This document shows, one piece after another, positions 13,404 through 63,551 of a DNA stretch of 63,770 nt. The DNA is from an uncultured Mycoplasmatota bacterium (GTDB lineage: Bacteria; Bacillota_I; Bacilli_A; RF39; UBA660). Numbering within the stretch: the first letter of the stretch is position 1; each line of letters starts with the position of its first letter. Both the position numbers and the translations under genes were made by a program. Location of the stretch: positions 1 to 63,770 of the forward strand of contig UQVR01000003.1 of assembly GCA_900544625.1 (NCBI GenBank), written 5' to 3'. The notes under the pieces are model-generated. The model was not told the origin of the DNA. It worked only from the letters and a program-made list of their open reading frames with translations, and made no database searches.

Positions 13404-13536
13404 TAATTATGGCTAATATTATTAAATGAACTTTATGGATTTACAATAATTATTTATCTTTTGCTATTATCACACATATATTTCTTTTATTTTTATCAAA
13501 ATTAGGTTATAATAATTGTACGAGGAGTAAAGTTAT

Positions 13537-14583: not shown

Positions 14584-14600
14584 ATTTGTTCATTTTTTTT
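14575..14600 (+). terminator. rho-independent terminator overlapping the tagO stop
   Basis: AAATGAA (14578-14584) / TTCATTT (14589-14595) followed by a T-run. Confidence 0.55.
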
Positions 14601-14643
14601 CTTTTTTTATAACAATAATTCATTCTTTTAAAAATAAAATATG

Positions 14644-14672
14644 TTGACGTGTTCAAAAAAAAATGATAAAAT
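14644..14672 (+). promoter_or_regulatory. sigma-A-type promoter of the ABC/glycopolymer operon
   Basis: TTGACG (14644-14649) - 17 nt - TGa-TAAAAT (14667-14672); inverted repeat GTGTTCA (14649-14655) / TGAACAC (14680-14686) brackets the -10 and the start region. Confidence 0.6.
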
Positions 14673-14700
14673 CAAAATATGAACACTAAAGGAGGAAAAT

Positions 14701-18883: not shown

Positions 18884-18894
18884 GGGAGTATTAT

Positions 18895-22112: not shown

Positions 22113-22164
22113 AATTATATGATAAAATGAATTAGTGGGGAAAATTTGATGTGAGGTATGTACA

Positions 22165-24631: not shown

Positions 24632-24641
24632 AGGAGTAGAT

Positions 24642-25760
24642 ATGAAAAAAATAACCATCTTAGCTTTACATTTAAATTTTGGAGGAGTAGAAAAGTATAT
24701 ATCTTCATTATGTAAAATGCTTGAAGACGACTATGATATTGAGTTAATAGTTACATATAGAAGTAAACCAGCCTTTGATTTTAGTAGAAAAATTAAGATT
24801 AGGTATTTAATAGATGGCATGCCAAATAAGGACGAATTTAAAAAAAGTTTAAAGAATAAACAAATTTTTAAAACTTTTAAAGAAGGAATTATAGCTGCTA
24901 AAATGCTATTATTAAAGAGAATATTAAATATAAAGGCCATAAAAAACATAGAAAGCGATTATATTATTACAACTAGAGAATTTCATAGTAAGTTAGTTGG
25001 AAAATACGCAAAAAAGAATATAGTAAAAATAGCTACTGAACATAATTATCATAATAATGACGTTAAGTATGTGAATAAACTTTTAAAGTCCGTAGCCAAT
25101 TTCAACTTTTTAGTAGTGGTTTCCAATGAATTAAAAGAATATTACAATAAATTGTCAAAGACAAAAGTTGTATATATACCAAATACTATTGATTTTATTC
25201 CTAAAGAAAAAAGTAAATTAAATAAAAATAACATTGTTGCAGTTGGAAGGTTTTCAAAAGAAAAAGGGTTTGTAGATTTGATTGATGTTTTTAAATTAGT
25301 GAATAATGAAATTGATGATTCAAAATTGTATTTAATAGGTGATGGAAATCAAATGCCATTGATAAAAGAAAAAATTGATAATTATGGATTAAATGGTAAA
25401 GTGATATTAACAGGATTTTTATCTCAATCAGAAATAAAAAATTTTTATTTAGAATCGAAATTATATGTTATGACTTCTTATACCGAAAGTTTTGGGCTTG
25501 TCTTAATTGAAGCAATGAGTTACGGACTTCCTTGTGTCGCATTTGATTGTGCTTCTGGTGCTCGTGAAATAATTAATGAAAATAATGGTGTTTTAATAAG
25601 TGATCGAAACAGCCAAGATATGGCAAAAGAAATTATTAAATTATTTAAAGATTCTGAAAGATTAAAAAAACTTGCTGCACAGACTTTAAATACTTGCAAA
25701 AAGTATTCAATGGATGAAGTAAAACAAAAATGGATGAACTTGTTGGAGGATAAAAAATGA
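24642..25760 (+). CDS. glycosyltransferase family 4
   Basis: 'VGRFSKEKGF' and 'ESFGLVLIEAMSYGLPCVAFDC' (E-x7-E region). Confidence 0.8.
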   Translation: MKKITILALHLNFGGVEKYISSLCKMLEDDYDIELIVTYRSKPAFDFSRKIKIRYLIDGMPNKDEFKKSLKNKQIFKTFKEGIIAAKMLLLKRILNIKAIKNIESDYIITTREFHSKLVGKYAKKNIVKIATEHNYHNNDVKYVNKLLKSVANFNFLVVVSNELKEYYNKLSKTKVVYIPNTIDFIPKEKSKLNKNNIVAVGRFSKEKGFVDLIDVFKLVNNEIDDSKLYLIGDGNQMPLIKEKIDNYGLNGKVILTGFLSQSEIKNFYLESKLYVMTSYTESFGLVLIEAMSYGLPCVAFDCASGAREIINENNGVLISDRNSQDMAKEIIKLFKDSERLKKLAAQTLNTCKKYSMDEVKQKWMNLLEDKK

Positions 25761-26467
25761 AAAAATATTTAAAAATAATATATGAAAAAAGTGAGAAAGA
25801 ATATTTTAATTTGTTAAAAGAGTATTTAGAAAATAATGAAAAGAAGTTTATCATAACTGCTAATCCAGAAACGCTAACGATGGCTGAAACTGATGAAGAA
25901 GTAAGTAAGATGTTACTAGATAAAAATAACAGTGTAGTTCCTGATGGAATCGCTATTGTTAAGGCTTGTAAAACGCTTGATATTCCTGTGACAGAAAGAA
26001 TTGCGGGGGTAGACATTGCAGAATATTTGTTACATGAAGCATCACAATTAAAGAAAAAAGTTTATTTGTTTGGTAGTAAACAAGAAGTTATAGATGGAAT
26101 GAAAAATGTAATTAAAAAGAAATATTCTGGAATAAAACTAGTAGGTGCTACAAATGGATACATTGAAGATAAAGATAAAGAATTTGAAAATATAAAAAAA
26201 GCTAAACCTGATGTAATCATGGTTGCTTTGGGAATTCCTTATCAAGAAAAATTAATTTATAAGCATTTAAAAGATTTTGAGAAAGGAATATTCATTGGTG
26301 TTGGTGGTTCATTTGATGTTTTAAGTGGTACTAAAAAAAGAGCCCCTAAAATATTTATAAAATTAAATTTAGAATGGCTGTATAGAATTATGTGTGAACC
26401 TAAAAGATTAAAAAGATTTTGGAATAATAATGTTAAATTTATATTAAAAATAAAAAAAGAAAAATAG
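25757..26467 (+). CDS. tagA: WecB/TagA/CpsF-family N-acetylmannosaminyltransferase
   Basis: 'ANPETLTMA...VVPDGIAIV', 'GIPYQEKLI', 'GVGGSFDVLSG', 'EWLYRIMCEPKRLKRF'; ATGA overlap with the GT4 gene. Confidence 0.8.
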   Translation: MKKYLKIIYEKSEKEYFNLLKEYLENNEKKFIITANPETLTMAETDEEVSKMLLDKNNSVVPDGIAIVKACKTLDIPVTERIAGVDIAEYLLHEASQLKKKVYLFGSKQEVIDGMKNVIKKKYSGIKLVGATNGYIEDKDKEFENIKKAKPDVIMVALGIPYQEKLIYKHLKDFEKGIFIGVGGSFDVLSGTKKRAPKIFIKLNLEWLYRIMCEPKRLKRFWNNNVKFILKIKKEK

Positions 26468-26510
26468 ATTATAATTTATAAAGTTATTAAAGAAAATAGA
26501 GGAAAATGAA

Positions 26511-27686
26511 ATGAATAAAGTAAAGATCAAACAATTAATTAACATAATGTTCTTGATATGTATTTTTATATATATTTTATTTAGTTTAATAAGGTCTTTT
26601 GTTAGACCAGATGAAATTATTGAAATGGAAAATCGGTATGCAAATAAATATGATTCAATTTCTTTAAAAAAGTATGTTGATGGGAGTATACAAAAAAATA
26701 TAGAAAACACGTTATCAGATCAAGTTATATTGTCTTCAAGATTAAAAAAAGGTAACAATTATATAAAAGGTTTAACATTAAAAGCGTATGTTGATTTATA
26801 TTATAAAAAACATGATTTAGATTACCTAAATGCAGGCGATGTTAATTTTTATGGTCCAGAAAATTTGGTTTATTATTATAGAGATTTAAATAATATATCT
26901 CAATATTTAGATAAAAAAATTGAAAACTATAATTCTTTTGCAAATAAGAATAAAGATGTTGATGTATATTTATATTATATAGAAAAAGATACAGATATAA
27001 ACTTTAAAACTGATAAAAAAATTGATATTTTTGAATATCTTCAAAAAAGATTAAATAATATTAAAGATTCTAAGTTTGAAATTGATAACTTTGAAGATTT
27101 TAAAGAATATTTTTATAAAACTGATCATCATTGGAACTATAAGGGTTCATATAAAGCCTATACTGAAGTTTTGGATTTAATGAATATAAGTAATCCAGTT
27201 AAGTATGCTGATGAGATTTGTTTAAGTAAAAGTTTTAGTGGGTCAAAAGCAAGTGCATCTGTTTTTAATAGAATTATGAAAGATGATTTTTGTGCTTATA
27301 ACTTTAATTTTAGTAATTTAGATATTACTGTTAATGGTGAGAAAAAAGACTATGGTGCTCAAGCTGAATTTTTTAATAATACTACTGACCTAAATATTAC
27401 TTATGGTAATTTTTATGGTTGGGATGATGGAGAAGTAATATTTAAAAATAATAATAGTGATTCTAAAGATAATTTACTTGTAATTGGTGAATCTTATGAT
27501 AATGCAATATTAAAATTGTTGGCTGAAAAATATAATACAACAATATCCATTGATTTGAGAAATTATAAGTATTATATGCAAAAGGATTTTGATTTTCAAT
27601 ATTATAAAGAAAAGTATAATATTAATAAAGTTTTATTTATAGGAAATGTAGACTTTTATGTAATGGATGAGTTTATGGTTAATTAG
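26511..27686 (+). CDS. DHHW-motif (AlgJ/AlgX-like) protein, N-terminally anchored
   Basis: N-terminal TM; 'KTDHHWNYKGSYKAY' motif; located directly upstream of the MBOAT gene. Confidence 0.65.
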   Translation: MNKVKIKQLINIMFLICIFIYILFSLIRSFVRPDEIIEMENRYANKYDSISLKKYVDGSIQKNIENTLSDQVILSSRLKKGNNYIKGLTLKAYVDLYYKKHDLDYLNAGDVNFYGPENLVYYYRDLNNISQYLDKKIENYNSFANKNKDVDVYLYYIEKDTDINFKTDKKIDIFEYLQKRLNNIKDSKFEIDNFEDFKEYFYKTDHHWNYKGSYKAYTEVLDLMNISNPVKYADEICLSKSFSGSKASASVFNRIMKDDFCAYNFNFSNLDITVNGEKKDYGAQAEFFNNTTDLNITYGNFYGWDDGEVIFKNNNSDSKDNLLVIGESYDNAILKLLAEKYNTTISIDLRNYKYYMQKDFDFQYYKEKYNINKVLFIGNVDFYVMDEFMVN

Positions 27687-27695
27687 GAGGCAATT

Positions 27696-29105
27696 ATGTT
27701 ATTTAGTAGTACAACATTTATATTTATGTTTTTAACACTTTTATTAATTTTATATTTTCCAATTAAGAATATTAAGTATAGAAATATAATTTTGTTAATT
27801 TTTTCATTAATCTTTTATTCATGGGGAGAACCTAAATATATATTTTTAATGCTTTTAACAGTATTAATTGCTTATATTTTCGGATTATTAATCGATAAAT
27901 ATAGAAAAGATAAAAAGAAAAGTAAATTATTTTTAGTAATTAGTATAATACTTATTTTGTTAAATTTATTTATATTTAAATATTTAGATTTTAGTATTGG
28001 AATTATTAATAGTATATTTAAAACAAATATTGGTTTAACAAAACTAGTTTTACCAATAGGTATTAGTTTTTATACATTTCAAATATTATCGTATGTTATA
28101 GATTTGTATTGGGGTAAAGTTGGAGTTCAAAAAAACTATTTTAGATTACTTTTATATGTTTCATTTTTTCCTCAATTAATTGCTGGCCCGATTGTTAGAT
28201 ATGAGACAGTAGAAAAAGAAATTAGTGATAGAAAAACCACCTTAGATGGCTTTATATCTGGCTTCAAGAGATTTATTTGGGGGCTTGCAAAAAAAGTCAT
28301 TGTAGCAAATAATGTAGCAATTTTTTGCGATTATGTTTATAATAATTATTCTTCTTATGGAAGCAATATTTTGTGGGTTGCAGCTGTTTGTTATACGCTT
28401 CAAATATATTTTGATTTTTCAGGATATAGTGATATGGCTATTGGCTTAGGAAAAATGTTTGGCTTTAATTTTTTAGAAAACTTTAATTATCCATATATAG
28501 CAACTAGTATTAATGATTTTTGGAGAAGATGGCATATTTCTTTATCAACTTTCTTTAGAGATTATGTTTATATTCCTCTTGGAGGAAATCGTGTTAGCAA
28601 AATAAAATTCATTAGAAACATTTTTATTGTATGGCTATTAACTGGTATATGGCATGGAGCAAGCTATAATTTTATTTTATGGGGATTATATTATGCTATT
28701 TTACTACTAATTGAAAAAATGGTTACTGGCAAGTATATTGAAAAATTACCAAAAGTTTTAAAAATACTTTATTCTTTATTTTTTATAACGTTAGGTTGGG
28801 TAATATTTAGAGTTGAAAATATAAATGATTTAATATTAGTAATTAAGAAAATGTTTAGTTTTAATAATACAAGTTTTGTAACTTTGTTTAATAATAATGC
28901 TATGCTTATTTCCACTGCACCTTATATTATATTAGGAATATTTTTATCATTGCCAATTGATAAATGGTTTAAGGAAAAAGTTGATAAATCCAATAGCGTA
29001 ATACTTACTTTAATTGAAGATTTAATTCTTGGTGTATTGTTTGGAATTTCAATTATGTTTTTGGTAAGTAATTCATATAATCCATTTATATATTTTAGAT
29101 TTTAA
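27696..29105 (+). CDS. MBOAT family O-acyltransferase (AlgI/DltB-like)
   Basis: 'FWRRWHISLSTFFRDYVYIPLGGNR', 'LTGIWHGASYNF'; polytopic. Confidence 0.85.
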   Translation: MLFSSTTFIFMFLTLLLILYFPIKNIKYRNIILLIFSLIFYSWGEPKYIFLMLLTVLIAYIFGLLIDKYRKDKKKSKLFLVISIILILLNLFIFKYLDFSIGIINSIFKTNIGLTKLVLPIGISFYTFQILSYVIDLYWGKVGVQKNYFRLLLYVSFFPQLIAGPIVRYETVEKEISDRKTTLDGFISGFKRFIWGLAKKVIVANNVAIFCDYVYNNYSSYGSNILWVAAVCYTLQIYFDFSGYSDMAIGLGKMFGFNFLENFNYPYIATSINDFWRRWHISLSTFFRDYVYIPLGGNRVSKIKFIRNIFIVWLLTGIWHGASYNFILWGLYYAILLLIEKMVTGKYIEKLPKVLKILYSLFFITLGWVIFRVENINDLILVIKKMFSFNNTSFVTLFNNNAMLISTAPYIILGIFLSLPIDKWFKEKVDKSNSVILTLIEDLILGVLFGISIMFLVSNSYNPFIYFRF

Positions 29106-29185
29106 TAAAATCGAGATCAAATTGTATAATTTTAAAATTAGCAAAAGTTGTAAAAAATGAAAGTTTAATCAGAAGGAGGATAAAA

Positions 29186-30292
29186 ATGATTAAAGTAATG
29201 AGTATATTTGGAACTAGACCAGAAGCTATAAAAATGGCACCTCTAGTAAAAGAATTAGAAAGAAGAAAAGAAATAGAAAGTATTGTTTGTGTAACTGCTC
29301 AACATAGAGAAATGCTTGATCAAGTGCTTAATACTTTTGATATTAAGCCAGATTATGATTTAAATATTATGAAGCAAGGTCAAAGTCTTGCAGATGTAAC
29401 AACTAGAGCATTAGTTGGACTTGAAGAGGTAATAAAAGAAGTTAAACCTGATATAGTTTTAGTTCATGGTGATACTACCACAACATTTGCAGGTGCACTA
29501 GCTGCTTTTTATAACCAAGTTGCTATTGGACATGTTGAAGCTGGACTTAGAACTTATGATAAATATTCACCATTTCCAGAAGAGATGAATCGTCAGTGTG
29601 TTGATAGAATGACAGATATGTATTTTGCACCAACGGAAATTAGTAAGAATAATTTACTTAAAGAAAATATTGATGAAAGTAAAATATATGTAACTGGAAA
29701 TACTGCAATTGATGCTATGTCTACGACCGTGGATGAAAATTATACACACCCAGAACTTGAATGGATTAAACCAGGAGAAAGAATGATTTTATTAACTGCT
29801 CATCGTAGAGAAAATCTTGGGGAACCAATGCGTCATATTTTCAGAGGTATTAAAAGAATAGTTGATGAATTTGATGATGTAAAGGTAATATATCCAATTC
29901 ATATGAATCCACGCGTAAGAGAAGTTGCAAATGAAGTATTTGGTGATGCTGATAGAGTTAAATTAATTGAACCGCTTGAAGTATTTGATTTTCATAATTT
30001 TCAAAACAAGTCATATATCATTTTAACTGATAGTGGAGGAATACAAGAAGAAGCACCAAGTTTAGGTAAACCAGTACTTGTTTTAAGAGATACAACAGAA
30101 AGACCAGAAGGAATAGCAGCAGGAACTCTAAAACTTGTGGGAACAGATGAAAAAGTAATATATGAAGAAACAAAAAAATTACTTACAAATAAAGAAGCTT
30201 ATGAAAAAATGAGTAAAGCATCCAATCCATATGGAGATGGACATGCAAGTGAAAGAATTGTAGATGCAATAGAAAAATATTTTAATAAATAA
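29186..30292 (+). CDS. mnaA: UDP-N-acetylglucosamine 2-epimerase (non-hydrolysing)
   Basis: 'IFGTRPEAIKMAPL', 'HVEAGLRT', 'TDSGGIQEEAPSLGKPVLVLRDTTERPEG'. Confidence 0.9.
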   Translation: MIKVMSIFGTRPEAIKMAPLVKELERRKEIESIVCVTAQHREMLDQVLNTFDIKPDYDLNIMKQGQSLADVTTRALVGLEEVIKEVKPDIVLVHGDTTTTFAGALAAFYNQVAIGHVEAGLRTYDKYSPFPEEMNRQCVDRMTDMYFAPTEISKNNLLKENIDESKIYVTGNTAIDAMSTTVDENYTHPELEWIKPGERMILLTAHRRENLGEPMRHIFRGIKRIVDEFDDVKVIYPIHMNPRVREVANEVFGDADRVKLIEPLEVFDFHNFQNKSYIILTDSGGIQEEAPSLGKPVLVLRDTTERPEGIAAGTLKLVGTDEKVIYEETKKLLTNKEAYEKMSKASNPYGDGHASERIVDAIEKYFNK

Positions 30293-30296
30293 TTTT

Positions 30297-30330
30297 AAAA
30301 ACGATACACAATTAAAAAGTATCGTTTTAA
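30297..30330 (+). terminator. rho-independent terminator (weak T-tract)
   Basis: ACGATAC (30301-30307) / GTATCGT (30319-30325) then TTT. Confidence 0.5.
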
Positions 30331-43256: not shown

Positions 43257-43691
43257 ATGTTATTTGATGATAATTTAGGATTTTTTGGCTTTGCTGTACC
43301 AAAGAATATGAAAATAAGTAGTGATTCAGATTTGACAAGTATTGCTGATGGTTTTTCTAAGGGAAATATGTTTAATAATTTATATGATCCATATAAAAAT
43401 TATAAATACGAAAGAGTTGTTGCTAATAATAAACAAGAAGAATTATTATTAGAAATAATGGCACTATCTTTTGCAATCAATGACTTAAATCTTTATTTAG
43501 ATTTACATCCAACTGATGAAGAAATGTTAAAAAAATTTAGAGAATTAGCTGAAAAATCATGTACAAAAGAAATGGAATATGTTAAAGCTTATGGACCACT
43601 TGAAGTAATTGATAATAACTCATTATCAAAATTTAATTGGATAAATAATCCATGGCCTTGGGAAAATACTGGAGGTACAAAATATGTTTAA
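43257..43691 (+). CDS. cotJB: spore coat protein CotJB with an N-terminal CotJA-like extension (apparent CotJA-CotJB fusion)
   Basis: GGGAGG RBS; C-terminal part 'LNLYLDLHPTDEE...YGPL...NNPWPWE' = CotJB; N-terminal 'FAVP...GFSKGNMFNNLYDPYKNY' resembles the CotJA core. Confidence 0.75.
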   Translation: MLFDDNLGFFGFAVPKNMKISSDSDLTSIADGFSKGNMFNNLYDPYKNYKYERVVANNKQEELLLEIMALSFAINDLNLYLDLHPTDEEMLKKFRELAEKSCTKEMEYVKAYGPLEVIDNNSLSKFNWINNPWPWENTGGTKYV

Positions 43692-44244
43692 ATATGTAAA
43701 ACATTTATCTTATCCAGTCAGTGTTACAAAAAAAGATTTAAAAATGGCAAAACTTATTATTACTCAGGTCGGGGGTTATGCTGGAGAACTTGGAGCATCG
43801 TTGCGATATTTTCATCAAAAGTTTACAATGCCAGATGAATTAGGAAGAGCATTACTTAATGACATTGCAACTGAAGAAATAGGTCATTTAGAAATGGTTG
43901 CCACTATAGTTTCACAATTAATATCTAATGCTACAATTGATGAGATTAAAGAAGCAGGACTAGAAAGTTTTTATACAGAACACGGAAAAGGAGTTTTCCC
44001 TATGAACGCAGATGGTGTAGCATTTGATGCTTCAACATTTGCTGTAACTGGTAATCCTTTAGCAGATTTAGTAGAAGATATGGCGGCAGAACAAAAAGCT
44101 AGAGTTGCATATGAACATTTAATTGATTTAGCAACAGATCCAAAAGTAATAGAGCCACTTTTATTCTTGCGCCAAAGAGAAATTGTGCACTTTAATCGTT
44201 TTCAAGAACTTTACAATTATTATAAGGATAAAGGATATAAATAA
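43684..44244 (+). CDS. cotJC: spore coat protein CotJC (manganese-catalase family)
   Basis: 'GELGASLRYFHQ', 'ATEEIGHLEMV', 'AEQKARVAYEHL'; 8-nt overlap with cotJB. Confidence 0.9.
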   Translation: MFKYVKHLSYPVSVTKKDLKMAKLIITQVGGYAGELGASLRYFHQKFTMPDELGRALLNDIATEEIGHLEMVATIVSQLISNATIDEIKEAGLESFYTEHGKGVFPMNADGVAFDASTFAVTGNPLADLVEDMAAEQKARVAYEHLIDLATDPKVIEPLLFLRQREIVHFNRFQELYNYYKDKGYK

Positions 44245-44323: not shown

Positions 44324-44352
44324 TTGACTTTATATTTATTTTATCTTAAAAT
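44324..44352 (+). promoter_or_regulatory. sigma-A-type promoter of the glycine-rich protein gene
   Basis: TTGACT (44324-44329) - 17 nt - TAAAAT (44347-44352). Confidence 0.55.
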
Positions 44353-44377
44353 TAATTATAGGATAGGTTAGAAGCAT

Positions 44378-46324
44378 ATGAATAAATTGTTGAATAGAAT
44401 AAAAAAAATCCTCAATAAAGATGTAACTGCTTTCTTAAACAAAAATAAAATTCCACTAATAAGTATAGCAATAGTGGTCCTTTTATCATGTGTTGGTCTA
44501 ATCGTTACATATGCATTCTATCAAGTAGTTGATGTAAAACCAATCATTGGGGGAGCAACATCAGAAATTTCCGATTTAGATATAAGAATAATGGCTGAAG
44601 AAAGAGATGCAAATGGAAATGGCTTAAATACATATGGATTATATCCTTATATACCAAAAGCAGGTTATGTTTATAATGAAACAAAAAGTAAATGTACAAA
44701 TGGTTCAACAATAAAATATGATTCAAAAAATTACAGTGCTGATATAACAGCTTTAGGACACGATGTATGTTATTTATATTTTGATTCTACAGCTCAACTA
44801 GATATTACACTAAATGTTTATGCTGAAAATGTCGATTCAGATGGTAATGGTAATGGAGAATATACAAAGTTAGAAACAACTGCATTACCAACAATTGGAT
44901 ATGAAATAAATGCTTCAAAAAGCAAATGTCAAAATGGTTCAACAGTAACTTATAGTGCTGCAGACAATTTGTTTTCAGTAGAATCCAATCAAAAAGATGT
45001 GTGTGATGTATATATGGATGCCATGGATGTAGACATTGCTCTAAAAATATATGTTCAAGCTAAAAAGAACTCGGCAACATACTATGAAGCAAAAACGATT
45101 CCGTCAAATTTATTTTATGCATTATCTACAAAATCTGCATGTACAGGTACTTCAACAATGTCAATAAAAAATCAAAAAATAGTTATTGCAGCAACAGGAA
45201 GAACTAGTTGTGTTGCATATTTAGATGTAAGTAGTGGACCAATACTTGAAAGTATGAAAGTTACAAATGGAACAACAGGCACAACAATAACACTTGGAAA
45301 TAGTCCTTTAGGACTTACACCTAACACATATTATTATTCAAGTGATGGTGGAAAAACATATGTATCAAGTACAAATAATAGTTACACATTTGCGGGTTTA
45401 ACTAATCCAAGTTATGCTTTTAGAGCTTATAGTGCAGATGCATCAGGAAACACGTCCAGAACTTTTGAAACATCAACATATGGATATTATGGGTTAGTAG
45501 ATTATTCAAATCAAATCCAAACTAAAACTATTATGGAGCCAGGATACTATAAATTAGAGGTATGGGGAGCGCAAGGTGGTAGCTATGGCTCTTATACAGG
45601 TGGTTACGGCGGATATTCTACGGGAATTGTTTATTTAGATGCAAATCAACAATTATATATAGCATCAGGAGGAGCAGGAGCTGCAGGATGTAATACACAA
45701 TATTGTAGTGGTGGTTATAATGGTGGCGGCCGCGGTGCTGGAAGTTCAAACCCAGTTTATTCTGGTGGTGGTGGAGGAGCTACTCATATTGCAACCAAAA
45801 CCGGAATTTTATCATCCTTATATGATAGTATAGATAATATATTAATCGTTGCCGGTGGAGGTGGAGGCGTATCTTTCCAAGCACCATCTTATACAGGTAA
45901 TGGTGGAGCAGGTGGCGGAGCTTCTGGTGTTAATGGAACTAATTTGTCAAGTGGATTTTTATATGGTGCTGGCGGCAGTCAAAATTCAGGTGGTGCATCC
46001 GGTGGAGGCACAGAAAATTCAGTTGCCCGAGGTGAAAGTGGTTCGTTTGGACAAGGCGGAGATGGTAATTACTATTCTGCCGGTGGAGGCGGAGGCCTTT
46101 ACGGTGGAGGAGCAAGTAATCAAGCTGGAGCCGGTGGAGGTTCAGGATATATTGGAAACTCATTACTAATTAATAAATCAATGTATTGCTATAATTGTAC
46201 TGCAAATAGTGCGGAAAATACTAGAACATACCCCACAACATGTCATAATGCTAATGCTACAGAAAATTGTTCTAAAGAAGGAAATGGTTATGCAATCATT
46301 ACTTATATAGGTTCAACAATATAA
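44378..46324 (+). CDS. N-terminally anchored/secreted multidomain protein: 3 Cys-pair repeats + FN3-like domain + C-terminal glycine-rich (Gly_rich, PF12810-like) domain
   Basis: TM 'IPLISIAIVVLLSCVGLIVTYAFY'; repeats at aa 66-283; 'YYYSSDGGKTY...YTFAGLT...AFRAYSADASGN' is FN3-like; 'YYKLEVWGAQGG...GGYNGGGRG...SGGGGGATHI...LIVAGGGGG...AGGGGGLYGGG...GGGSGYIG' matches the glycine-rich-protein family pattern. Confidence 0.7.
   Translation: MNKLLNRIKKILNKDVTAFLNKNKIPLISIAIVVLLSCVGLIVTYAFYQVVDVKPIIGGATSEISDLDIRIMAEERDANGNGLNTYGLYPYIPKAGYVYNETKSKCTNGSTIKYDSKNYSADITALGHDVCYLYFDSTAQLDITLNVYAENVDSDGNGNGEYTKLETTALPTIGYEINASKSKCQNGSTVTYSAADNLFSVESNQKDVCDVYMDAMDVDIALKIYVQAKKNSATYYEAKTIPSNLFYALSTKSACTGTSTMSIKNQKIVIAATGRTSCVAYLDVSSGPILESMKVTNGTTGTTITLGNSPLGLTPNTYYYSSDGGKTYVSSTNNSYTFAGLTNPSYAFRAYSADASGNTSRTFETSTYGYYGLVDYSNQIQTKTIMEPGYYKLEVWGAQGGSYGSYTGGYGGYSTGIVYLDANQQLYIASGGAGAAGCNTQYCSGGYNGGGRGAGSSNPVYSGGGGGATHIATKTGILSSLYDSIDNILIVAGGGGGVSFQAPSYTGNGGAGGGASGVNGTNLSSGFLYGAGGSQNSGGASGGGTENSVARGESGSFGQGGDGNYYSAGGGGGLYGGGASNQAGAGGGSGYIGNSLLINKSMYCYNCTANSAENTRTYPTTCHNANATENCSKEGNGYAIITYIGSTI
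44573..45226 (+). repeat. three tandem ~70-aa protein-level repeats, each with a conserved Cys pair
   Basis: DLDIRI...GYVYNETKSKCTNGSTIKYD...DVCYLYFD / QLDITL...GYEINASKSKCQNGSTVTYS...DVCDVYMD / DVDIAL...ALSTKSACTGTSTMSIKN...TSCVAYLD. Confidence 0.7.
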
Positions 46325-46345
46325 GTTTGTTGAACCTTTTATTTT
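46310..46345 (+). terminator. rho-independent terminator (stop codon in the loop)
   Basis: GGTTCAACAA (46310-46319) / TTGTTGAACC (46327-46336) + TTTTATTTT. Confidence 0.85.
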
Positions 46346-46357
46346 AAAAAGAATTAA

Positions 46358-46386
46358 TTGACTTTGCATAATATTTATCATAAAAT
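46358..46386 (+). promoter_or_regulatory. sigma-A-type promoter
   Basis: TTGACT (46358-46363) - 17 nt - TAAAAT (46381-46386); same AATTGACTTT...TAAAATTAA architecture as at 44324. Confidence 0.55.
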
Positions 46387-46423
46387 TAACATAATAAAAC
46401 ATTTAAAAAGATTGGAGTAAAAA

Positions 46424-46690
46424 ATGAAGTGTAAAAATTGTGGAAATCCTTTACCAAACGAAGGTATAACTTGTAAGTTTTGTGGAGCATTAATGGATCA
46501 AAGCCAAATAAATTATCAAAATAAAATGAACGATAAAAATAATAAAAAGATTACACTATTAAGTGAAAAATATGGACATGAAAATAAAATAGAATATCGT
46601 GAAATAAAAGAAAATAAGGTATTAGGTTTAATAGTAATATCAATAGTACTTTTATTTTTAATAGTTTTAGCCATACTAATAAATATATAA
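46424..46690 (+). CDS. zinc-ribbon protein with C-terminal TM helix (hypothetical)
   Basis: 'CKNCGNPLPNEGITCKFCG' (CxxC-x11-CxxC) and C-terminal 'LGLIVISIVLLFLIVLAILI'. Confidence 0.6.
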   Translation: MKCKNCGNPLPNEGITCKFCGALMDQSQINYQNKMNDKNNKKITLLSEKYGHENKIEYREIKENKVLGLIVISIVLLFLIVLAILINI

Positions 46691-46700
46691 AGGTGATATT

Positions 46701-47213
46701 ATGTTATTATTATGTATAAAAATATTTTTTGCAAGAATAGTTGATGTTACATTTGGAACAATTAGAACTGTTTTAGTAGTAAGAGGCCGTAGGTTTACTC
46801 CAGCAATAATTGCATTTTTTGAAGTTCTTATTTGGTTTTTGGTAGCTCGTGAAGCTTTAACTACCGATATTAAGTCAATTATTATCCCAATATGTTATGC
46901 CGGAGGTTACGCAACAGGAACATTTATTGGCGGATATATATCGAATAATTTAGTAGAAGGATTAATTGGTGTACAGGTTACAACTAAAACTAGTGATGTA
47001 AAAAAGATGATTAAAGAAATAAGAGATGCCGGTTTTGGTGTATCAGTAGTAGATTTAAAAAATCCTCAAGATAATGAAAAGAAAACAATGTTGATGATTC
47101 AATTAAATAAATCAAAATTAAAAAAATTAACTCATATAATAAGAACAAATGATAAAGATGCATTTGTAGTAATAAATGATACAAAATATGTTCAAAATGG
47201 AGTTATAAAGTAA
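46701..47213 (+). CDS. UPF0316/DUF2179-family membrane protein
   Basis: 'FFARIVDVTFGTIRTVLVVRGRR', three TM helices, then a C-terminal soluble domain; typical ~170-aa family member. Confidence 0.65.
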   Translation: MLLLCIKIFFARIVDVTFGTIRTVLVVRGRRFTPAIIAFFEVLIWFLVAREALTTDIKSIIIPICYAGGYATGTFIGGYISNNLVEGLIGVQVTTKTSDVKKMIKEIRDAGFGVSVVDLKNPQDNEKKTMLMIQLNKSKLKKLTHIIRTNDKDAFVVINDTKYVQNGVIK

Positions 47214-47238
47214 GTGTGGATTAGCCATACTTTTTTTG
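47213..47238 (+). terminator. rho-independent terminator
   Basis: AGTGTGG (47213-47219) / CCATACT (47225-47231) with one G-T pair, then T7. Confidence 0.5.
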
Positions 47239-47294
47239 TAAAATATAATTTTTTTGCTTTTAATTAATATAATAATATGCTAAAATGAAGTTAG

Positions 47295-48410
47295 GTGATA
47301 AAATTGAAAAAGATAAATTGGGAAAAAGTAAACAAATTTATAAGAAATAAAAATTTTATAATTGCAGTATGCGTTTTTGGTTTAACAATGGCATCAGTTG
47401 GATTTAGTTATGCATCATTTTTCTCTGTTAAAACAAACACAACAAATCAAAGTATTACAACAGGAACTTTGAATGTTTCATATGGAAGTAATTCATCATC
47501 AATTCAAAAAACGAATATGACATCTATGTCAGATGAAATGGGATTAGCTCAAACAGAAGCAAGTGTAATATATATTCAAAATACTGGTTCATTAGATTCT
47601 ACATATGTCATGAATATTGGCTATGATATGACAAATTTTAAAGCAAGAACTGGATATAAGGATACAGATGTATTAACTCCGATAGATTATATAATGGTAG
47701 CGGTTTATGAATATAATGGTGCTGGAAAAGAAGATACTTTAATTGTAGAACCAATAAGTATTGCAGAACTTCCAATAGTAAAATATGATGAATCTGACCC
47801 AAGAAATAATAGATATTCAATTTTATTTAATACTTTAGGGGGAACCTCAAGTAGCAATTCAACTAAAACATATAAAATAAAAACATGGTTAAGTGATAAG
47901 GCAATACCTGCTGCAAGTTATACATATTTTTATGTAAATACAGAAATAGTAGCTGAAGTGCAAAATGCCAAAATGGCATATACTTTGAGAATTCTTTCAT
48001 CTAGTCCACTAGCGGGAATAACTTTGCAAAATGGATCAAAAAAGGCTACAATGGTAAATAATTCTTTTATCCTAGATAATATTTATCCTGGTACATATAA
48101 TATTGAAATAGTATTTAATAAAAATAAATACAAAGGAAATATAACTATAGAAGAGGGAACTGGTAATAGTCTTACTAGTTATGGTACATCTTTTACAGGT
48201 AGTAACATATATTCTATAGCTAATACTTATAAGACAACAGTAGCAAAAATAATAGAATATAACAATTTAGATACCTATAGTAGTGCTGCAACAATATCGA
48301 GTGGAAAGTTAATGGCAACATATAAAATAACTGGTGGATTAGAAAAGATAATAAGTTTAAAATTAACCAACATAGATGTAGATAAAAAAACATTTACATT
48401 AAGTATGTAA
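47295..48410 (+). CDS. TasA/camelysin-like secreted protein with SipW-type signal and an extra C-terminal beta-sandwich-like region
   Basis: 'FIIAVCVFGLTMASVGFSYASFFSVKTNTTNQSITTGTLNVS...IYIQNTGSLDSTY' parallels TasA '...AAFND...ASGTLDLS...FENNGSL'; C-terminal 'LDNIYPGTYNIEIVF'. Start uncertain (GTG 47295 or TTG 47304). Confidence 0.5.
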   Translation: MIKLKKINWEKVNKFIRNKNFIIAVCVFGLTMASVGFSYASFFSVKTNTTNQSITTGTLNVSYGSNSSSIQKTNMTSMSDEMGLAQTEASVIYIQNTGSLDSTYVMNIGYDMTNFKARTGYKDTDVLTPIDYIMVAVYEYNGAGKEDTLIVEPISIAELPIVKYDESDPRNNRYSILFNTLGGTSSSNSTKTYKIKTWLSDKAIPAASYTYFYVNTEIVAEVQNAKMAYTLRILSSSPLAGITLQNGSKKATMVNNSFILDNIYPGTYNIEIVFNKNKYKGNITIEEGTGNSLTSYGTSFTGSNIYSIANTYKTTVAKIIEYNNLDTYSSAATISSGKLMATYKITGGLEKIISLKLTNIDVDKKTFTLSM

Positions 48411-48458
48411 TACATAAAATTTTTAAAAAATAAAATACAAAAAATTGTCAGTTTAGGG

Positions 48459-48487
48459 TTGATTTTTATAAGCTAAAATGATAATAT
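48459..48487 (+). promoter_or_regulatory. sigma-A-type promoter with extended -10 (paralog 1)
   Basis: TTGATT (48459-48464) - 17 nt - TGa-TAATAT (48482-48487); strong AGGAGAGGAG RBS follows. Confidence 0.6.
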
Positions 48488-48514
48488 TAAAATAGGAGAG
48501 GAGAAAGAAGAATT

Positions 48515-49180
48515 ATGGATAACAAAAAAAATACTATCCTATTAACAGTTATTGCAGTTGCTACATTATTAGTTGCTGTAGTAGGTGCAACATTCGCTTA
48601 CTTCACAGCTCAAGGAGCACAAGGAACAACAGCAACTGTTACAGTTAGTACAGGTACAGCAGCTAGTTCAGAATTTGGTACAATTGATCCACTTAACATT
48701 TATGCTGATGCAACAACATTTGCAGAAGGTGCTGGAGATGTTACTGATGATACTACAGGTACAGTAAAATGGACAGCTCCAGGAGCAGTTACAGGACAAG
48801 AAGCTCCAAGTGAAGCAGATAGAAGTTTCTGTTATACAGCATCACTAAATATTACTGCTAATACATTTACAGTTTCTGCTGCTAATACAGAAAATTTAAA
48901 TGAATTAGAATTTACTGCTAAAAAAGGAGAAACAGTTTTACTTGATAAAATATCTCTAGTTGATTTTGATACTAAAGTTGGAAAAACTGGAACAATTCAA
49001 ATTCCAACAACTGCTAATGGTAGTGAATATACTCACAAATTAGTTGCTGATGCTGGTGCTAGTGTTACTGATAATTGGACAATTACAGTTACATTAAAGA
49101 ACTTAGCAATGAATCAAAATGAAAATACTGGTAAACAACTAACTGGACAAATAGCCTTTACAAAGACTGATTGCGCATAA
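48515..49180 (+). CDS. Thr/Ala-rich secreted protein with SipW/CalY-type signal peptide (paralog 1), putative fibre subunit
   Basis: 'LLTVIAVATLLVAVVGATFAYFTAQ' (cf. CalY GGGTFAYFSD); C-terminus 'TVTLKNLAMNQNENTGKQLTGQIAFTKTDCA'; two Cys. Confidence 0.6.
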   Translation: MDNKKNTILLTVIAVATLLVAVVGATFAYFTAQGAQGTTATVTVSTGTAASSEFGTIDPLNIYADATTFAEGAGDVTDDTTGTVKWTAPGAVTGQEAPSEADRSFCYTASLNITANTFTVSAANTENLNELEFTAKKGETVLLDKISLVDFDTKVGKTGTIQIPTTANGSEYTHKLVADAGASVTDNWTITVTLKNLAMNQNENTGKQLTGQIAFTKTDCA

Positions 49181-49199
49181 TTTTTACTAAAATAAAATT

Positions 49200-49218
49200 G
49201 GACTCTGGTCCTTTTTTT
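49200..49218 (+). terminator. weak terminator between the paralogs
   Basis: GGAC/GTCC 4-bp stem (49200-49211) + T7 (49212-49218). Confidence 0.3.
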
Positions 49219-49257
49219 GTTTCTAAAAAAAAGTTTATAAAAAAAGACATAATGGGG

Positions 49258-49286
49258 TTGATTTTTAATTTATAAAATGTTAATAT
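49258..49286 (+). promoter_or_regulatory. sigma-A-type promoter with extended -10 (paralog 2)
   Basis: TTGATT (49258-49263) - 17 nt - TGt-TAATAT (49281-49286). Confidence 0.6.
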
Positions 49287-49312
49287 TAAAATAGGAGAGG
49301 AGAAAAGTAGAT

Positions 49313-49972
49313 ATGGAAAATAAAAAGAATACTATTCTTTTAACAGTTATCGCAGTTGCTACATTATTAGTTGCTGTTGTAGGTGCAACATTTGCTTACT
49401 TCACTGCTCAAGGTGGTACAGGGACTTCAGCTAATGTTACTGTTACAACAGGTACAGCAGCTAGTTCAGAATTTGGTACTTTTGGAGCTATCAACATTTA
49501 TGCTGATGCTACAACTTTTGCTAAAGGTAAACCTGATGCTACTGGAACAACAACAGGAACAGTAAGTTGGACAGCACCAGGTGCAACAACAACTACAACA
49601 CCTAGTGAAGCAGATAGAAGTTTCTGTTATACAGCTGATTTAATTATTACTGCTAATACATTTACTAAATCTGCTGCAAACACTGCAAATGCAAAAGAAC
49701 TATACTTTACTGCTGTTAAAGGTTCAACTACTTTAGTTGACGAACAAAGTTTAGTTACATTGCCTGCTGGAACTGCTGTTACTGGAACAATTAATATTCC
49801 AACAACTAAAGGTGGAGAAATATTAAAACACAAATTAATTGCAGAAGCTGGTAAAACTGTATCTGATTCATGGACTATTACAGTTACATTAAAGAACTTA
49901 GACATAGACCAAAATGAAAATACAGGAAAACAACTAACTGGTTCAATTAAATTCACTAAAGTTGCTTGTTAG
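49313..49972 (+). CDS. Thr/Ala-rich secreted protein with SipW/CalY-type signal peptide (paralog 2), putative fibre subunit
   Basis: Residues 1-34 identical to paralog 1 except D2E; C-terminus 'TVTLKNLDIDQNENTGKQLTGSIKFTKVAC'; two Cys at the same positions. Confidence 0.6.
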   Translation: MENKKNTILLTVIAVATLLVAVVGATFAYFTAQGGTGTSANVTVTTGTAASSEFGTFGAINIYADATTFAKGKPDATGTTTGTVSWTAPGATTTTTPSEADRSFCYTADLIITANTFTKSAANTANAKELYFTAVKGSTTLVDEQSLVTLPAGTAVTGTINIPTTKGGEILKHKLIAEAGKTVSDSWTITVTLKNLDIDQNENTGKQLTGSIKFTKVAC

Positions 49973-49980
49973 TTAAAAAG

Positions 49981-50004
49981 GAATGAACTTCGGTTCATTT
50001 TTTT
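49981..50004 (+). terminator. rho-independent terminator
   Basis: GAATGAAC-TTCG-GTTCATT followed by a T-run. Confidence 0.8.
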
Positions 50005-53484: not shown

Positions 53485-54819
53485 ATGGAAAACAAAAAAA
53501 GTATATTTAAATTAATAATAACAGTTGTATTAATATTTATAGGATTTGAAATATTTATAAATACATTTGGTAGCCTAGTTGCAACTACAACTTGGGATAC
53601 TATAAAACATGGAAAATACACTACATATTTTCTAAGTGAGTTTATAGTATTATTATGTGGATTACTTTTACTAGCTCTAAGAAAGAAATGGTATATATTT
53701 AAAAATCAAAAGAAATCATTTAAAGATACAATTATGTTATGTTTACCAATCGTAATACTTTCTTGTTTAGTATTTGTAGCAAATGTAATAGAATTAAATA
53801 TATCTAAACTAAATATAGCAAATTTAATAAGTTTAGTATTTTATTGCATAAGTATTGGATTATTTGAAGAAATATTTTTTAGAGGAATAATTGAAGAAGA
53901 GTTATTAAGTAAGTTAAGCAGCAATAAAAAAGAAGTAATAATATCAATCATATTAAGTGGAGTAATATTTGGAGCTATCCATTTTACTAATCTTCTAATG
54001 GGACAAGATTTATTAACTACTTTAATGCAATTCATCCAAACTATGTCAATTGGAATACTTTTTGGAACAGTTTATTATTTTACTAAAAACATCTGGGCTT
54101 TAGCATTCTTACATGGTTTTTATGATTTTTCAGTATTACTAAGTGAAGTAAACATTGTAACTGGTTGTGGTTATGTAGAAAATGTTCCCTTAATTATAAC
54201 TATATCTTCACTTGTAGCATCAATTATACTTAGTGGAATATATTTAATATATAGTTTAATTATATTTAAAAAAGAAAATAATGAAGATAGTAAGAAATAT
54301 CATAAATTTATCTATGTATTAATAATAATATATTTTATATCTAATGCATTATTTGGTGTTTTAGGAAATGTTGATATAAATAAATATTATGTGTGTCCAG
54401 AATATAAAGAAAAAGAAATAAAATTAATTGAAACTCATTATTATGGTTATGATAAATACTATTATAATTATGATAATAATGTTATACACATATATAAAGA
54501 TAATGATAAAGTTATAATGAAAAATGAAAATGGCATTAAAATAAATGTTAATATAGATAATGTTGAAAGAATTGCTATCGTAGATGATGCAATATTAATA
54601 ATTGCCACCGATAACACAAATTATAAATTATATTATAATAAATTAACAGATTTAAAGAATATAAATAATTTTAAAGAATATGATATACCATCATCAAAAT
54701 CACTTGGATATTTAATAGATGCCAGTACAGGGTATAAATATCCATGCATAAAAAGCATAACAGAAGATTTATTTATTATAGATAACGAAGAATTATTTAT
54801 TGTCAAGCAAGCTAGCTAA
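53485..54819 (+). CDS. CPBP family intramembrane glutamic endopeptidase with C-terminal soluble extension
   Basis: 'LFEEIFFRG', 'FGAIHF', 'AFLHGFYD' motifs; extra ~150-aa C-terminal domain. Confidence 0.75.
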   Translation: MENKKSIFKLIITVVLIFIGFEIFINTFGSLVATTTWDTIKHGKYTTYFLSEFIVLLCGLLLLALRKKWYIFKNQKKSFKDTIMLCLPIVILSCLVFVANVIELNISKLNIANLISLVFYCISIGLFEEIFFRGIIEEELLSKLSSNKKEVIISIILSGVIFGAIHFTNLLMGQDLLTTLMQFIQTMSIGILFGTVYYFTKNIWALAFLHGFYDFSVLLSEVNIVTGCGYVENVPLIITISSLVASIILSGIYLIYSLIIFKKENNEDSKKYHKFIYVLIIIYFISNALFGVLGNVDINKYYVCPEYKEKEIKLIETHYYGYDKYYYNYDNNVIHIYKDNDKVIMKNENGIKINVNIDNVERIAIVDDAILIIATDNTNYKLYYNKLTDLKNINNFKEYDIPSSKSLGYLIDASTGYKYPCIKSITEDLFIIDNEELFIVKQAS

Positions 54820-62072: not shown

Positions 62073-63551
62073 ATGGAAAAAGAAAAAATTATATCATCAA
62101 TAGCCAAGCGAGGGAATGGTGAAATCTATTTAGGGGTAGTTGGAGCTGTTCGTACAGGTAAATCAACATTCATTAAAAGGTTCATAGAAAATCTTGTTGT
62201 ACCAAATATAACAGATGAATATGAAAAGAAAAGATGTTTAGACGAAATACCTCAAAGCGCACAAGGGAAAACCATTATGACTACAGAACCTAAATTTGTA
62301 CCAAGTAATGGTGCCACAATAACTGTCAACGAATTCGAAACAAGCATCAAGTTAGTTGATTGTGTAGGTTATGTCATTCCGGAAGCTAATGGTTTTGTTG
62401 ATGAGGAAGGAAATCCTAGGATGGTGAAAAGTCCTTGGTTCGAGGATGCGATTCCATTCGTAGAAGCGGCCGAAATAGGAACAGAGAAGGTCATCAAAGA
62501 TCACGCAACAATAGGTATTGTTGTCACAACAGATGGTTCGTTCGGCGAGATCAAGAGGGAATCCTATCTTGAAGCAGAAGAAAAAGTAGTTAGTGAATTA
62601 AAAAACATTGGAAAACCATTTATAGTTATATTGAACAGTATTCACCCTACAAATACTGAAACTCAAGAACTAGCTAGAAGTTTAATGGATACTTATGATG
62701 TTCCAGTTATGCCTATAAGTGCTGAATTAATGAATGAAAAAGAAATAATGGAAATTCTTAGAACAGCCTTATATGAGTTTCCGGTATTAGACATCAAAGT
62801 TTCCATACCTGAGTGGGTTCATGTTTTACCTAACAACAATGAGATTAAACAACATTATATGGAAAAAATTAGAGAAAGTGTCGTAAGTGTAGAAAAAGTC
62901 AAAGATGTGGATTACATCTTGGAACACTTCAAAAACTCAGAATATATTAATAACTCCTTTATATCTGAACTTGATGCATCCACAGGAACTGTAACTATAA
63001 CACTCAACAGTTCAAATGAATTATATACAGAAACACTTAAAAATCTAATGGGAGATATGGTAACCACTAAAGCAGGACTTCTTAAAATATTTGCTAATTA
63101 TGCCGAAGATAAAGAAGAAATGGATTCTCTAAAGGGAGCTATTAAAATGGCTAAAAACACTGGCTATGGTATAGTTTACCCAAGTATTAGAGAATTAAAA
63201 CTCCAAACACCTGAACTAGTAAAACAGGGTAGTAGGTATGGCGTTAAACTTAAAGCTGTTGCTTCAAGTATACATATGTTAAAAGTAGATGTAGAATCAA
63301 CTTTTGAACCCATCATAGGTAGCGAAATTCAATCTAAAGAATTAATCGATAGATTAATGAAAGATTATGAGAGTGACGCTTCAAGTATTTGGAAAAGTGA
63401 AATATTTGGTCGTAGTTTAGAAGCTATTGTTCAAGAAGGAATACAAGCAAAACTAAGTATGATGCCAGATAATACGAGATATAAACTTAAAGAAACAGTT
63501 TCAAAAATCGTTAATAAAGGATCCAATACTTTAATTGCAATAGTTATTTAA
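62073..63551 (+). CDS. spoIVA: stage IV sporulation protein A (spore coat morphogenetic ATPase)
   Basis: 'IYLGVVGAVRTGKSTFIKRF' Walker A and overall 492-aa SpoIVA-like sequence, including the C-terminal 'TLIAIVI'. Confidence 0.95.
   Translation: MEKEKIISSIAKRGNGEIYLGVVGAVRTGKSTFIKRFIENLVVPNITDEYEKKRCLDEIPQSAQGKTIMTTEPKFVPSNGATITVNEFETSIKLVDCVGYVIPEANGFVDEEGNPRMVKSPWFEDAIPFVEAAEIGTEKVIKDHATIGIVVTTDGSFGEIKRESYLEAEEKVVSELKNIGKPFIVILNSIHPTNTETQELARSLMDTYDVPVMPISAELMNEKEIMEILRTALYEFPVLDIKVSIPEWVHVLPNNNEIKQHYMEKIRESVVSVEKVKDVDYILEHFKNSEYINNSFISELDASTGTVTITLNSSNELYTETLKNLMGDMVTTKAGLLKIFANYAEDKEEMDSLKGAIKMAKNTGYGIVYPSIRELKLQTPELVKQGSRYGVKLKAVASSIHMLKVDVESTFEPIIGSEIQSKELIDRLMKDYESDASSIWKSEIFGRSLEAIVQEGIQAKLSMMPDNTRYKLKETVSKIVNKGSNTLIAIVI

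Follow-up and report, generated by a model that had tools for sequence, protein, structure and literature searches.

Among surface systems that depend on SipW, the closest described are TapA-SipW-TasA of Bacillus subtilis, SipW-TasA-CalY of Bacillus cereus, and sipW-bsaA-bsaB-bsaC of Clostridium perfringens. Strand complementation between TapA and TasA has been reported (PMC10151520), and BsaA, BsaB, and BsaC exemplify SipW operons in which TasA-like subunits are combined with a protein of another domain type (PMC11580942). The present analysis concerns four genes in a 63,770-nucleotide stretch of DNA from an uncultured Mycoplasmatota bacterium (contig UQVR01000003.1; hereafter the window, 63.8 kb, 25% G+C), each encoding a protein with a similar N-terminus: Gly648 (open reading frame (ORF) 44378, at 44378..46324), P371 (ORF 47295, at 47295..48410), and two small paralogues, S1 (ORF 48515, at 48515..49180) and S2 (ORF 49313, at 49313..49972). 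An earlier note on this DNA had taken the four as subunits of one heteromeric TasA-like fibre. The functional unit is better explained as P371 + S1 + S2, a core gene pair in a clade of gut Bacilli that form spores, have small genomes, and are relatives of CAG:460. What this pair might build is less certain, and the preferred reading, to which a probability of about 0.45 is attached, is a SipW-type-exported, wall-attached surface structure of P371 and S.

The P371-S pair and its shared N-terminus

As the earlier note had described, all four ORFs begin with a basic N-region and a single hydrophobic stretch, of 17-22 residues, that ends in the aromatic motif [ST][FY]A-x-[FY] (...VTYA/FYQ in Gly648, ...FSYA/SFF in P371, and ...ATFA/YFT in S1 and S2, the first 33 residues of which are identical). 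Scored as [ST][YF][AS]x[FYW] where an N-terminal hydrophobic stretch ends, the motif is found in 114 of 120 S-family members and in 26 of 33 members of the P371 family. The background, 271 N-terminally hydrophobic proteins from the window and from 77 loci chosen without regard to SipW, contains it five times, with Gly648 and its orthologues accounting for three of these. Exported proteins encoded elsewhere in the window use short ...VNA| or ...VKG| signals or a lipobox. The shared N-terminus exceeds chance for P371 and S, and moderately so for Gly648, whose motif carries lower weight because it is kept only among three close orthologues. Conservation is centred on the same region. The hydrophobic helix and GATFAYF motif are the most conserved part of S, with a majority-residue fraction of 0.78-0.85 over residues 7-33 versus 0.41-0.47 in the domain (39 diverse members), and the alignment of these members is without gaps through the sequence xVxVxT. 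In P371, the columns invariant among 33 homologues are G36, Y39, F42, F43, K46, T47, N48, Q52, T56, G57, and L59.

Wherever P371 is present (36 loci), one to five S genes follow it directly, and the order is mostly BipA - P371 - S(n) - ZIP - epimerase - patatin - YebC. The number of S copies after P371 varies over this range between lineages (L009, L024, L045, and others), and in L041 and L045 a long form of 541-697 residues follows directly. When the neighbours of 131 S-family members (81 loci) are clustered, P371 emerges as the sole recurrent partner. Gly648 has orthologues in just three loci, those of the closest relatives (L005, L007, and L008), and only there do the Gly648, zinc-ribbon, and UPF0316 genes stand beside P371-S; Gly648 is missing from the other 33 of 36 loci. 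The four-gene fibre locus is therefore not a conserved unit. Co-conservation, expected for all four genes of the proposed heteromeric fibre, is seen only for P371 and its S genes, and a system combining TasA-like subunits with a glycine-rich domain is not supported. One lineage (L001:8992-10822, also L002-L003) has a Phage_lysozyme2 protein and three ORFs of ~100 residues after its S genes in place of the ZIP transporter.

The S proteins have a simple architecture. From the AlphaFold2 (AF2) model and the conservation profile, S1 consists of a signal-like segment at residues 1-28 (...VVGATFA|YFTAQ), a linker at 35-50 that carries the conserved xVxVxT, and a ten-strand beta-sandwich at 51-218. 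The model itself (mean predicted local distance difference test score (pLDDT) 93.9) places a helix over residues 3-34 ahead of the non-strand linker and the sandwich. The conserved Cys106 and Cys220 suit an extracytoplasmic protein. The C-terminal 'QNENTGKQLTGxIxFT' reported by the earlier note is present in both paralogues. In Foldseek comparisons with the PDB, the best matches of the S model are FimF/FimG (9fy9_F, E=7.7e-3, probability 0.97, TMt 0.41), and TasA (5of1_A) ranks 36th, with E=0.04, probability 0.82, and template-modelling (TM) scores of 0.32/0.34; viral structures (BFVD) yield nothing at E<=1e-3. The family is large (1820 clusters at 90% identity and 1352 at 50%), comes in the genomes scanned from metagenome-assembled genomes (MAGs) of uncultured gut Bacilli, and is without annotation in the libraries searched, having no Pfam, NCBIfam, or PDB relative there.

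Many members consist of an S module of ~205 residues with long extensions, up to 1243 residues in all. Beyond the window, four further 20-kb loci of the matching MAG CAKOKX01 were also read, and at least four further proteins of this MAG are headed by an S module (L052:10001-12514; L054:9989-12658; L046; L057). Paralogues of 837 and 889 residues combine the module with fibronectin type III (FN3) repeats and a DUF6273-like region at the C-terminus; in the literature, DUF6273 comes up in connection with phage receptor-binding proteins and with targets of diversity-generating retroelements. Population alleles add a further observation. Allele P0069 has the N-terminal half of S2, the middle of S1, and the C-terminus of S2, and P0045 is S1 with an S2-like C-terminus (alignment A1). 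Because these alleles are mosaic for S1 and S2, gene conversion between the tandem copies is suggested.

P371 is more elaborate. A long basic N-region and a hydrophobic helix ending GFSYA|SFF (residues 1-40) precede the invariant segment SFFSVKTNTTNQSITTGTL (41-59), which is not modelled, a beta-sandwich domain (53-221), a CarboxypepD_reg-like sandwich (~229-295, assigned via homologues carrying PF13620/PF13715), a LysM-like alpha-alpha unit (299-338), and a C-terminal beta domain. The LysM assignment is marginal and covers a partial domain (PF01476, 22.1 bits with a cut-off of 20.9, positions 6-31 of 43); the P371 profile also matches the LysM structures 4uz2/4xcm and cross-matches a LysM amidase, and the AF2 model has two helices at 305-322. 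Overall pLDDT is 80, falling below 50 over residues 1-55 and to 26-54 in the invariant segment 41-59. The 'IQNTGSLDS' of the earlier note is present at residues 94-102. Foldseek with full-length P371 returns mostly multidomain noise (sortase pilins at TM 0.13). The better single-domain matches, CanA (9H8B/9HDI) and AbpA (7UEG), reach E 0.012-0.02, probability 0.54-0.80, and TMt 0.31-0.40 with this multidomain query, and TasA is not among the top 50.

Link to SipW and competing explanations

The argument for SipW-type export begins with the company the motif keeps. Beside SipW it is carried by 11 of 56 proteins in six initial loci (p=3e-6 against the background) and by 87 of 257, versus 5 of 271, in 80 metagenomic SipW loci that are independent of these six (Fisher p=4e-25). 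Profile comparison points the same way: the S profile aligns with a family of ~180-residue SipW-cassette proteins (A6) over 65 columns of the N-terminal region (hhalign E=2.5e-5, probability 75%), as does that of P371 over 39 columns (E=1.9e-4, probability 48%), and the best PDB sequence match of A6 is TasA, weakly (E=0.24). In the hhalign register, GATFA|YF of S is aligned with GGTWA|AF of TasA, and in structure 8AUR, the TasA fibre, mature TasA begins at A28, the aligned position; 8AUR also agrees with the TasA sequence used as query. By the operational test of this analysis, the assignment of all four proteins to the SipW-associated (S26B, TIGR02228) signal class is supported at the sequence level, the class having been assigned by this test and not by the curated model because the latter, TIGR04088, falls below its cut-off.

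One relative shows such an adjacency for the pair itself. In L031, which shares the downstream ZIP - epimerase - patatin - YebC order with the window locus, SipW adjoins P371-S (1 of 36 P371 loci). Directly upstream of the pair is a cassette that encodes a 675-residue protein with an N-terminal SipW domain (TIGR02228, 80.7 bits), a 506-residue Walker-A membrane protein, a DUF2357 protein, a 186-residue SipW (82.6 bits, both with a cut-off of 51.85), and a 406-residue protein beginning ...ITLAWFAYSG, which, like P371 and Gly648, is without a TIGR04088 match. Cassettes of this type recur in many lineages in other genomic contexts, often extended by proteins of ~180, ~300, and ~210 residues with like signals. 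As to the SipW-type signal claimed by the earlier note, the motif enrichment, the match to A6, and the L031 cassette speak for the claim, and the curated model does not.

The cassettes merit description in their own right. A SipW 'super-cassette' is present in related Bacilli at L031:1261-7742, L083:3186-11782, L086:5231-11813, L088:3051-12581, L089:5291-13991, L110:1841-11288, and L167:1463-12460, with DNA identity of 66-74% across lineages over 5.6 kb. Its order is a ~180-residue TasA-like protein, a ~300-residue protein, a third, short SipW-like protein, a SipW of 663-695 residues with a fused long C-terminal region, a Walker-A membrane protein of 506-515 residues, the DUF2357 protein, a SipW of 182-225 residues, and the 'LAWFAYSG' protein of ~405 residues, with a 'TYSRY' protein of ~210 residues at the end on the opposite strand. 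The ATPase and the DUF2357 protein thus sit between two signal peptidases. Compared by hhalign, S and P371 give nothing with the 'TYSRY' family, and with the 405-residue 'LAWFAYS' family they align only in the signal region or a short internal motif.

A number of results weigh against SipW-type export into a wall-attached structure, and they are best considered together. The S N-terminus scores 9.8 bits with TIGR04088 (E=0.92), short of the cut-off of 19. A SipW hidden Markov model (HMM) made from 120 homologues finds no match in stop-to-stop translations of the 63.8-kb window, SipW is absent by HMM from 77 of 78 S-family loci of representative genomes, and its adjacency in L031 could be from chance (rough p about 0.06 over the 36 loci). 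The 80 metagenomic SipW loci include 0 true S or P371 neighbours, and no SipW was tied to this species by HMM searches of the window and loci, the list of the 120 closest homologues, cluster look-up, the metagenome scan, or DNA overlap. PF12389 (Peptidase_M73/TasA) matches none of the four proteins and 39 S members (E<=1; E<=10 when domains are searched singly); PDB sequence and profile searches do not retrieve TasA; and the S model has nothing in Foldseek at E<=1e-3. Finally, a 24-residue helix with an aromatic belt also suits a permanent membrane anchor, and other anchored proteins of the window have Tyr/Phe after the helix. Two candidate neighbours from the metagenomic loci were rejected: the 'S' match in L167 is signal-only, in a 181-residue TasA-like protein (IIGATYSYF), and the 'P371' match in L110 is a LysM amidase.

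In the preferred reading, S1, S2, and P371 would be inserted by Sec via the conserved hydrophobic helix. A SipW-type (archaeal/ER-type, S26B) peptidase encoded elsewhere would then cleave the helix behind the Ala of [ST][FY]A|x[FY], as happens in TasA at TWA|AF. The mature N-termini would be YFTAQGAQGTTATVTVSTGTAASSEFGTIDPLNIYADATTFAEGAGDVTDDTTGTVK for S (from Y29) and SFFSVK for P371 (from S41). A promoter-like block and a strong ribosome-binding site (RBS) precede each S gene, and S would be the abundant, major component of a cell-surface structure that P371 would tie to peptidoglycan via its LysM-like and CarboxypepD_reg-like domains. By analogy with TapA on TasA, the invariant unstructured N-terminal segment of P371 may dock onto S, and the S-module paralogues with FN3 repeats and a DUF6273-like domain could display binding domains from the same structure. 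Given that the extended N-terminal segments are conserved, that the major subunits are in tandem, and that there is a weak likeness to donor-strand subunits, we infer that polymerisation might proceed by strand exchange. S and P371 are best filed as SipW-type exported surface/matrix proteins on an unannotated fold family. A more ambitious proposal, rather unlikely as it stands, would make S the subunit of a new fibre analogous to that of TasA and not homologous with it, P371 nucleating the fibre and tying it down by LysM, the large paralogues co-polymerising as adhesive heads, and the SipW super-cassette of the relatives, on which maturation would depend, serving as dedicated assembly apparatus and not as a solitary peptidase.

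The main rival, a real if minority possibility, holds that the helix is never cleaved and stays in the membrane as a signal-anchor. The S module would then be a membrane-proximal stalk, tethering nothing in S1 and S2 and FN3/DUF6273 ectodomains in the large paralogues, and the whole would be a family of coat proteins or adhesins anchored in the membrane, in a lineage that does not anchor by sortase, with P371 anchored too and binding the wall. A hydrophobic helix of 22-24 residues with outer Phe/Tyr resembles ordinary anchors of the window such as RNase Y, AF2 draws it as continuous over S residues 3-34 at a pLDDT of about 90, it is far more conserved than usual cleaved signals, and the S module is always N-terminal to large ectodomains. 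Also in keeping with permanent anchoring, and as the earlier note had stated of SipW and sortase, the window is without SipW (by the HMM), and motif scans of it find neither a signal peptidase (SPase) box nor the sortase TLxTC or an LPXTG at a C-terminus. However, the exact [ST][FY]A-x-[FY] is strongly tied to SipW loci, the N-terminal S and P371 profiles match SipW-cassette proteins, and T/A or S/A at -3/-1 is a proper cleavage site in the same register as in TasA. Anchoring would, moreover, leave the strict pairing with P371 unexplained.

Four TasA/camelysin subunits in a single donor-strand fibre, with Gly648 as tip or anchor, would account for the shared signal class, for the hhalign alignment of P371 with TasA (127 columns in register at the cleavage site, TGTLxxS, and NxGSL; weak, at E=0.045), and for the weak Foldseek matches to TasA-superfamily and donor-strand subunits. 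This proposal of the earlier note is nevertheless improbable. The searches it had called for found neither a Peptidase_M73/TasA match in any of the four proteins nor a significant Foldseek match to the TasA jelly-roll, and TM scores of about 0.3 lie below fold-level similarity. By hhalign, the mature domains of S and P371 show no detectable kinship to each other or to TasA; alignments of S with P371 and with TasA are confined to the signal region or to a short internal motif. In addition, 33 of 36 relatives lack the glycine-rich gene at this locus. A TasA relationship of the four proteins is thus not demonstrated.

Slightly less probable again is that these are ordinary Sec signals cut by the housekeeping SPase I, on secreted neighbours that are unrelated. 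Small residues at -3/-1 also suit SPase I, a SipS-type peptidase is encoded in the CAG:460 relative (L065), and the window is without SipW; yet the other secreted proteins of the window use signals of different form, the motif is rare outside the two families in which it is near-invariant, conservation is higher in the helix than in the mature domain, and P371 and S are paired in 36 loci. A type IV pilin-like protein, from which the leader MDNKKN would be removed to leave the conserved helix as filament core, has in its favour the N-terminal position of the most conserved part, a lollipop architecture in AF2, and weak matches to Pilin_N (E=0.014-0.043) and archaeal pilins (6nav, 8tib; E about 2), but the idea is very improbable and was rejected on the absence of a G|F...E5 or [KR][GA]| cleavage motif (the leader reads MDNKKN-T), sub-threshold HMM scores (Pilin_N 15.1 bits, cut-off 25.2), N-regions of 20-24 residues in P371 and Gly648 that are unlike a prepilin leader, and P371 as sole recurrent neighbour (131 members, 81 loci) by clustering, no pilus-machinery HMM having been run.

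Gly648, gene layout, and the rest of the window

Gly648 is a 648-residue surface protein with a signal-like N-terminus (residues 1-46, ...GLIVTYA|FYQ), three repeats of ~75 residues with two conserved cysteines each (residues ~95-290, e.g. KCTNGSTIKYDS...HDVCYLYFD), an FN3-like domain (~286-380), and an ALK/LTK-type glycine-rich domain (384-644), for which the earlier assignment to PF12810 was borne out (114.8 bits, cut-off 24.5, E=8.2e-33). The Cys-pair repeats match no Pfam family, and a related repeat is present in L022:50-952. The FN3-like segment, at 286-412, is common to the large S-family paralogues. On sequence grounds, Gly648 is best explained as a separate surface protein of the same signal class that was only recently juxtaposed, and it is not part of the conserved unit.

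Six genes, all on the + strand, lie within 44.3-50.0 kb. Gly648 is followed by a terminator-like hairpin (46309..46337, an 11-bp stem and T-run). Next is the interposed two-gene unit (46424..47213), which Pfam and NCBIfam matches confirm as an 88-residue zinc-ribbon/transmembrane protein (46424-46690) and a 170-residue DUF5698+DUF2179 (UPF0316) membrane protein (46701-47213), and which is judged unrelated to the surface proteins. P371, the 371-residue accessory protein of the pair, is preceded by a weak promoter-like site, TAGCCA-16-TATAAT, at 47222-47249, where the earlier note had found no clear promoter. S1 (221 residues) and S2 (219 residues, 72% identical to S1), each of 22 kDa, share an upstream block of TTGATT-17 nt-TGnTAATAT and the RBS AGGAGAGGAG. 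As read from the sequence, the block is TTGATT-17 nt-(TGa)TAATAT at 48459-48487 before S1, a consensus match only, with the RBS at 48494-48503, and TTGATT-17 nt-(TGt)TAATAT at 49258-49286 before S2, with the RBS at 49293-49302.

As to the promoters proposed earlier, promoter-like matches in the AT-rich window are no commoner than in shuffled sequence (40 versus 38.4), so that the scan is uninformative, though the two paralogues do share the block given above. As to terminators between the units, T-run hairpins lie 3' of Gly648, of the UPF0316 gene, and of S2 (AATGAAC-TTCG-GTTCATT and a T-run, 49982..50004), and 3' of S1 there is only a weak 4-bp hairpin with a T-run (49200-49218).

The small-protein gene is 98% identical in L005, of MAG CAKOKX01 ('uncultured Bacilli'), and the S protein is 84% identical to its counterpart in 'Firmicutes bacterium CAG:460'. 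Genes for CotJB, CotJC (Mn-catalase family), and SpoIVA are present at 43257-44244 and 62073-63551, and the lineage therefore probably sporulates; two contigs of its MAG total only about 1.1 Mb. The adjoining CotJ genes raised the idea of a spore appendage, which was rejected because the conserved upstream neighbour is BipA, CotJ being adjacent only in some lineages.

Elsewhere in the window, a 583-residue secreted protein with a C-terminal type I dockerin (9172-10923; 52.1 bits) precedes a 453-residue protein with a cadherin-like domain and a C-terminal transmembrane anchor (10937-12298), the N-terminal region of which is cohesin-like by eye; these neighbours are a possible cohesin-dockerin pair for a gut Bacillus with a small genome. 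A long + strand cluster at ~13500-30300 resembles, from translations alone, one for synthesis of a cell-envelope glycopolymer, with a MraY/WecA-like transferase, a flippase, sulfatase-like and O-antigen-ligase-like proteins, acyltransferases, glycosyltransferases, an MBOAT protein, and a UDP-GlcNAc 2-epimerase. A 444-residue Rce1-like (CPBP) intramembrane protease (53485-54819) is part of the downstream synteny in 17 loci.

Significance and comparison with known systems

The clade in question, comprising relatives of CAG:460, CAG:609, and 'Onthocola', is prevalent in human and animal guts, is uncultured, and has genomes of roughly 1.2 Mb. Given that the S/P371 pair is kept at a fixed chromosomal site, that the small subunit is duplicated up to five times, and that its module is reused in large proteins, the pair is probably a main determinant of the cell surface in this clade, with relevance to host contact, phage receptors, and antigenic variation. 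Should SipW processing and polymerisation hold true, SipW-dependent matrix fibres would reach beyond the TasA fold, and the envelope biology of an uncultured clade would gain a testable handle. More broadly, the association of the motif with SipW cassettes could serve as a simple way to predict which proteins of such genomes are SipW substrates.

Sortase-assembled pilins are not matched: there is no LPXTG near the C-termini here and no TLxTC protein in the window. Type IV and archaeal pilins likewise have a highly conserved N-terminal hydrophobic helix followed by a beta domain, but the prepilin cleavage motif is absent from S, HMM matches are sub-threshold, and the sole recurrent neighbour is P371. 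The chaperone-usher subunits FimF/FimG are small beta-sandwich proteins and the top, non-significant, Foldseek matches of S. Usher systems belong to Gram-negative bacteria and work through C-terminal grooves and chaperones, and no such genes are found here. The archaeal AbpA bundling pili (7UEG) and CanA cannulae resemble P371 in weak Foldseek matches, but without a sequence relationship. In the Bsa system of C. perfringens (PMC11580942), too, small matrix subunits share their SipW-dependent signals with a larger protein of an unrelated domain, vWA in that case and LysM, FN3, or glycine-rich here. It differs in being one operon with sipW, which the present locus is not, and its BsaA is remotely TasA-like and forms isopeptide bonds.

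The comparison with TapA-SipW-TasA and SipW-TasA-CalY remains. S and P371 differ from these systems in lacking Peptidase_M73 or TIGR04088 membership, in mature domains without detectable homology to TasA (TM score of about 0.33), and in having no sipW in the S/P371 operon save in one relative; P371 has LysM-like and CarboxypepD_reg-like domains that TapA does not, and the S module also heads proteins of up to 1243 residues. The likenesses are nonetheless those of overall design. The signal, G-x-T-aromatic-A|aromatic-F, keeps the register of the site at which TasA is cleaved, the gene for a larger accessory protein, which has a long N-region, stands just before those for one or more major subunits of ~20 kDa, those subunits are tandem paralogues, and the monomer is a beta-sandwich that follows an extended N-terminal segment.

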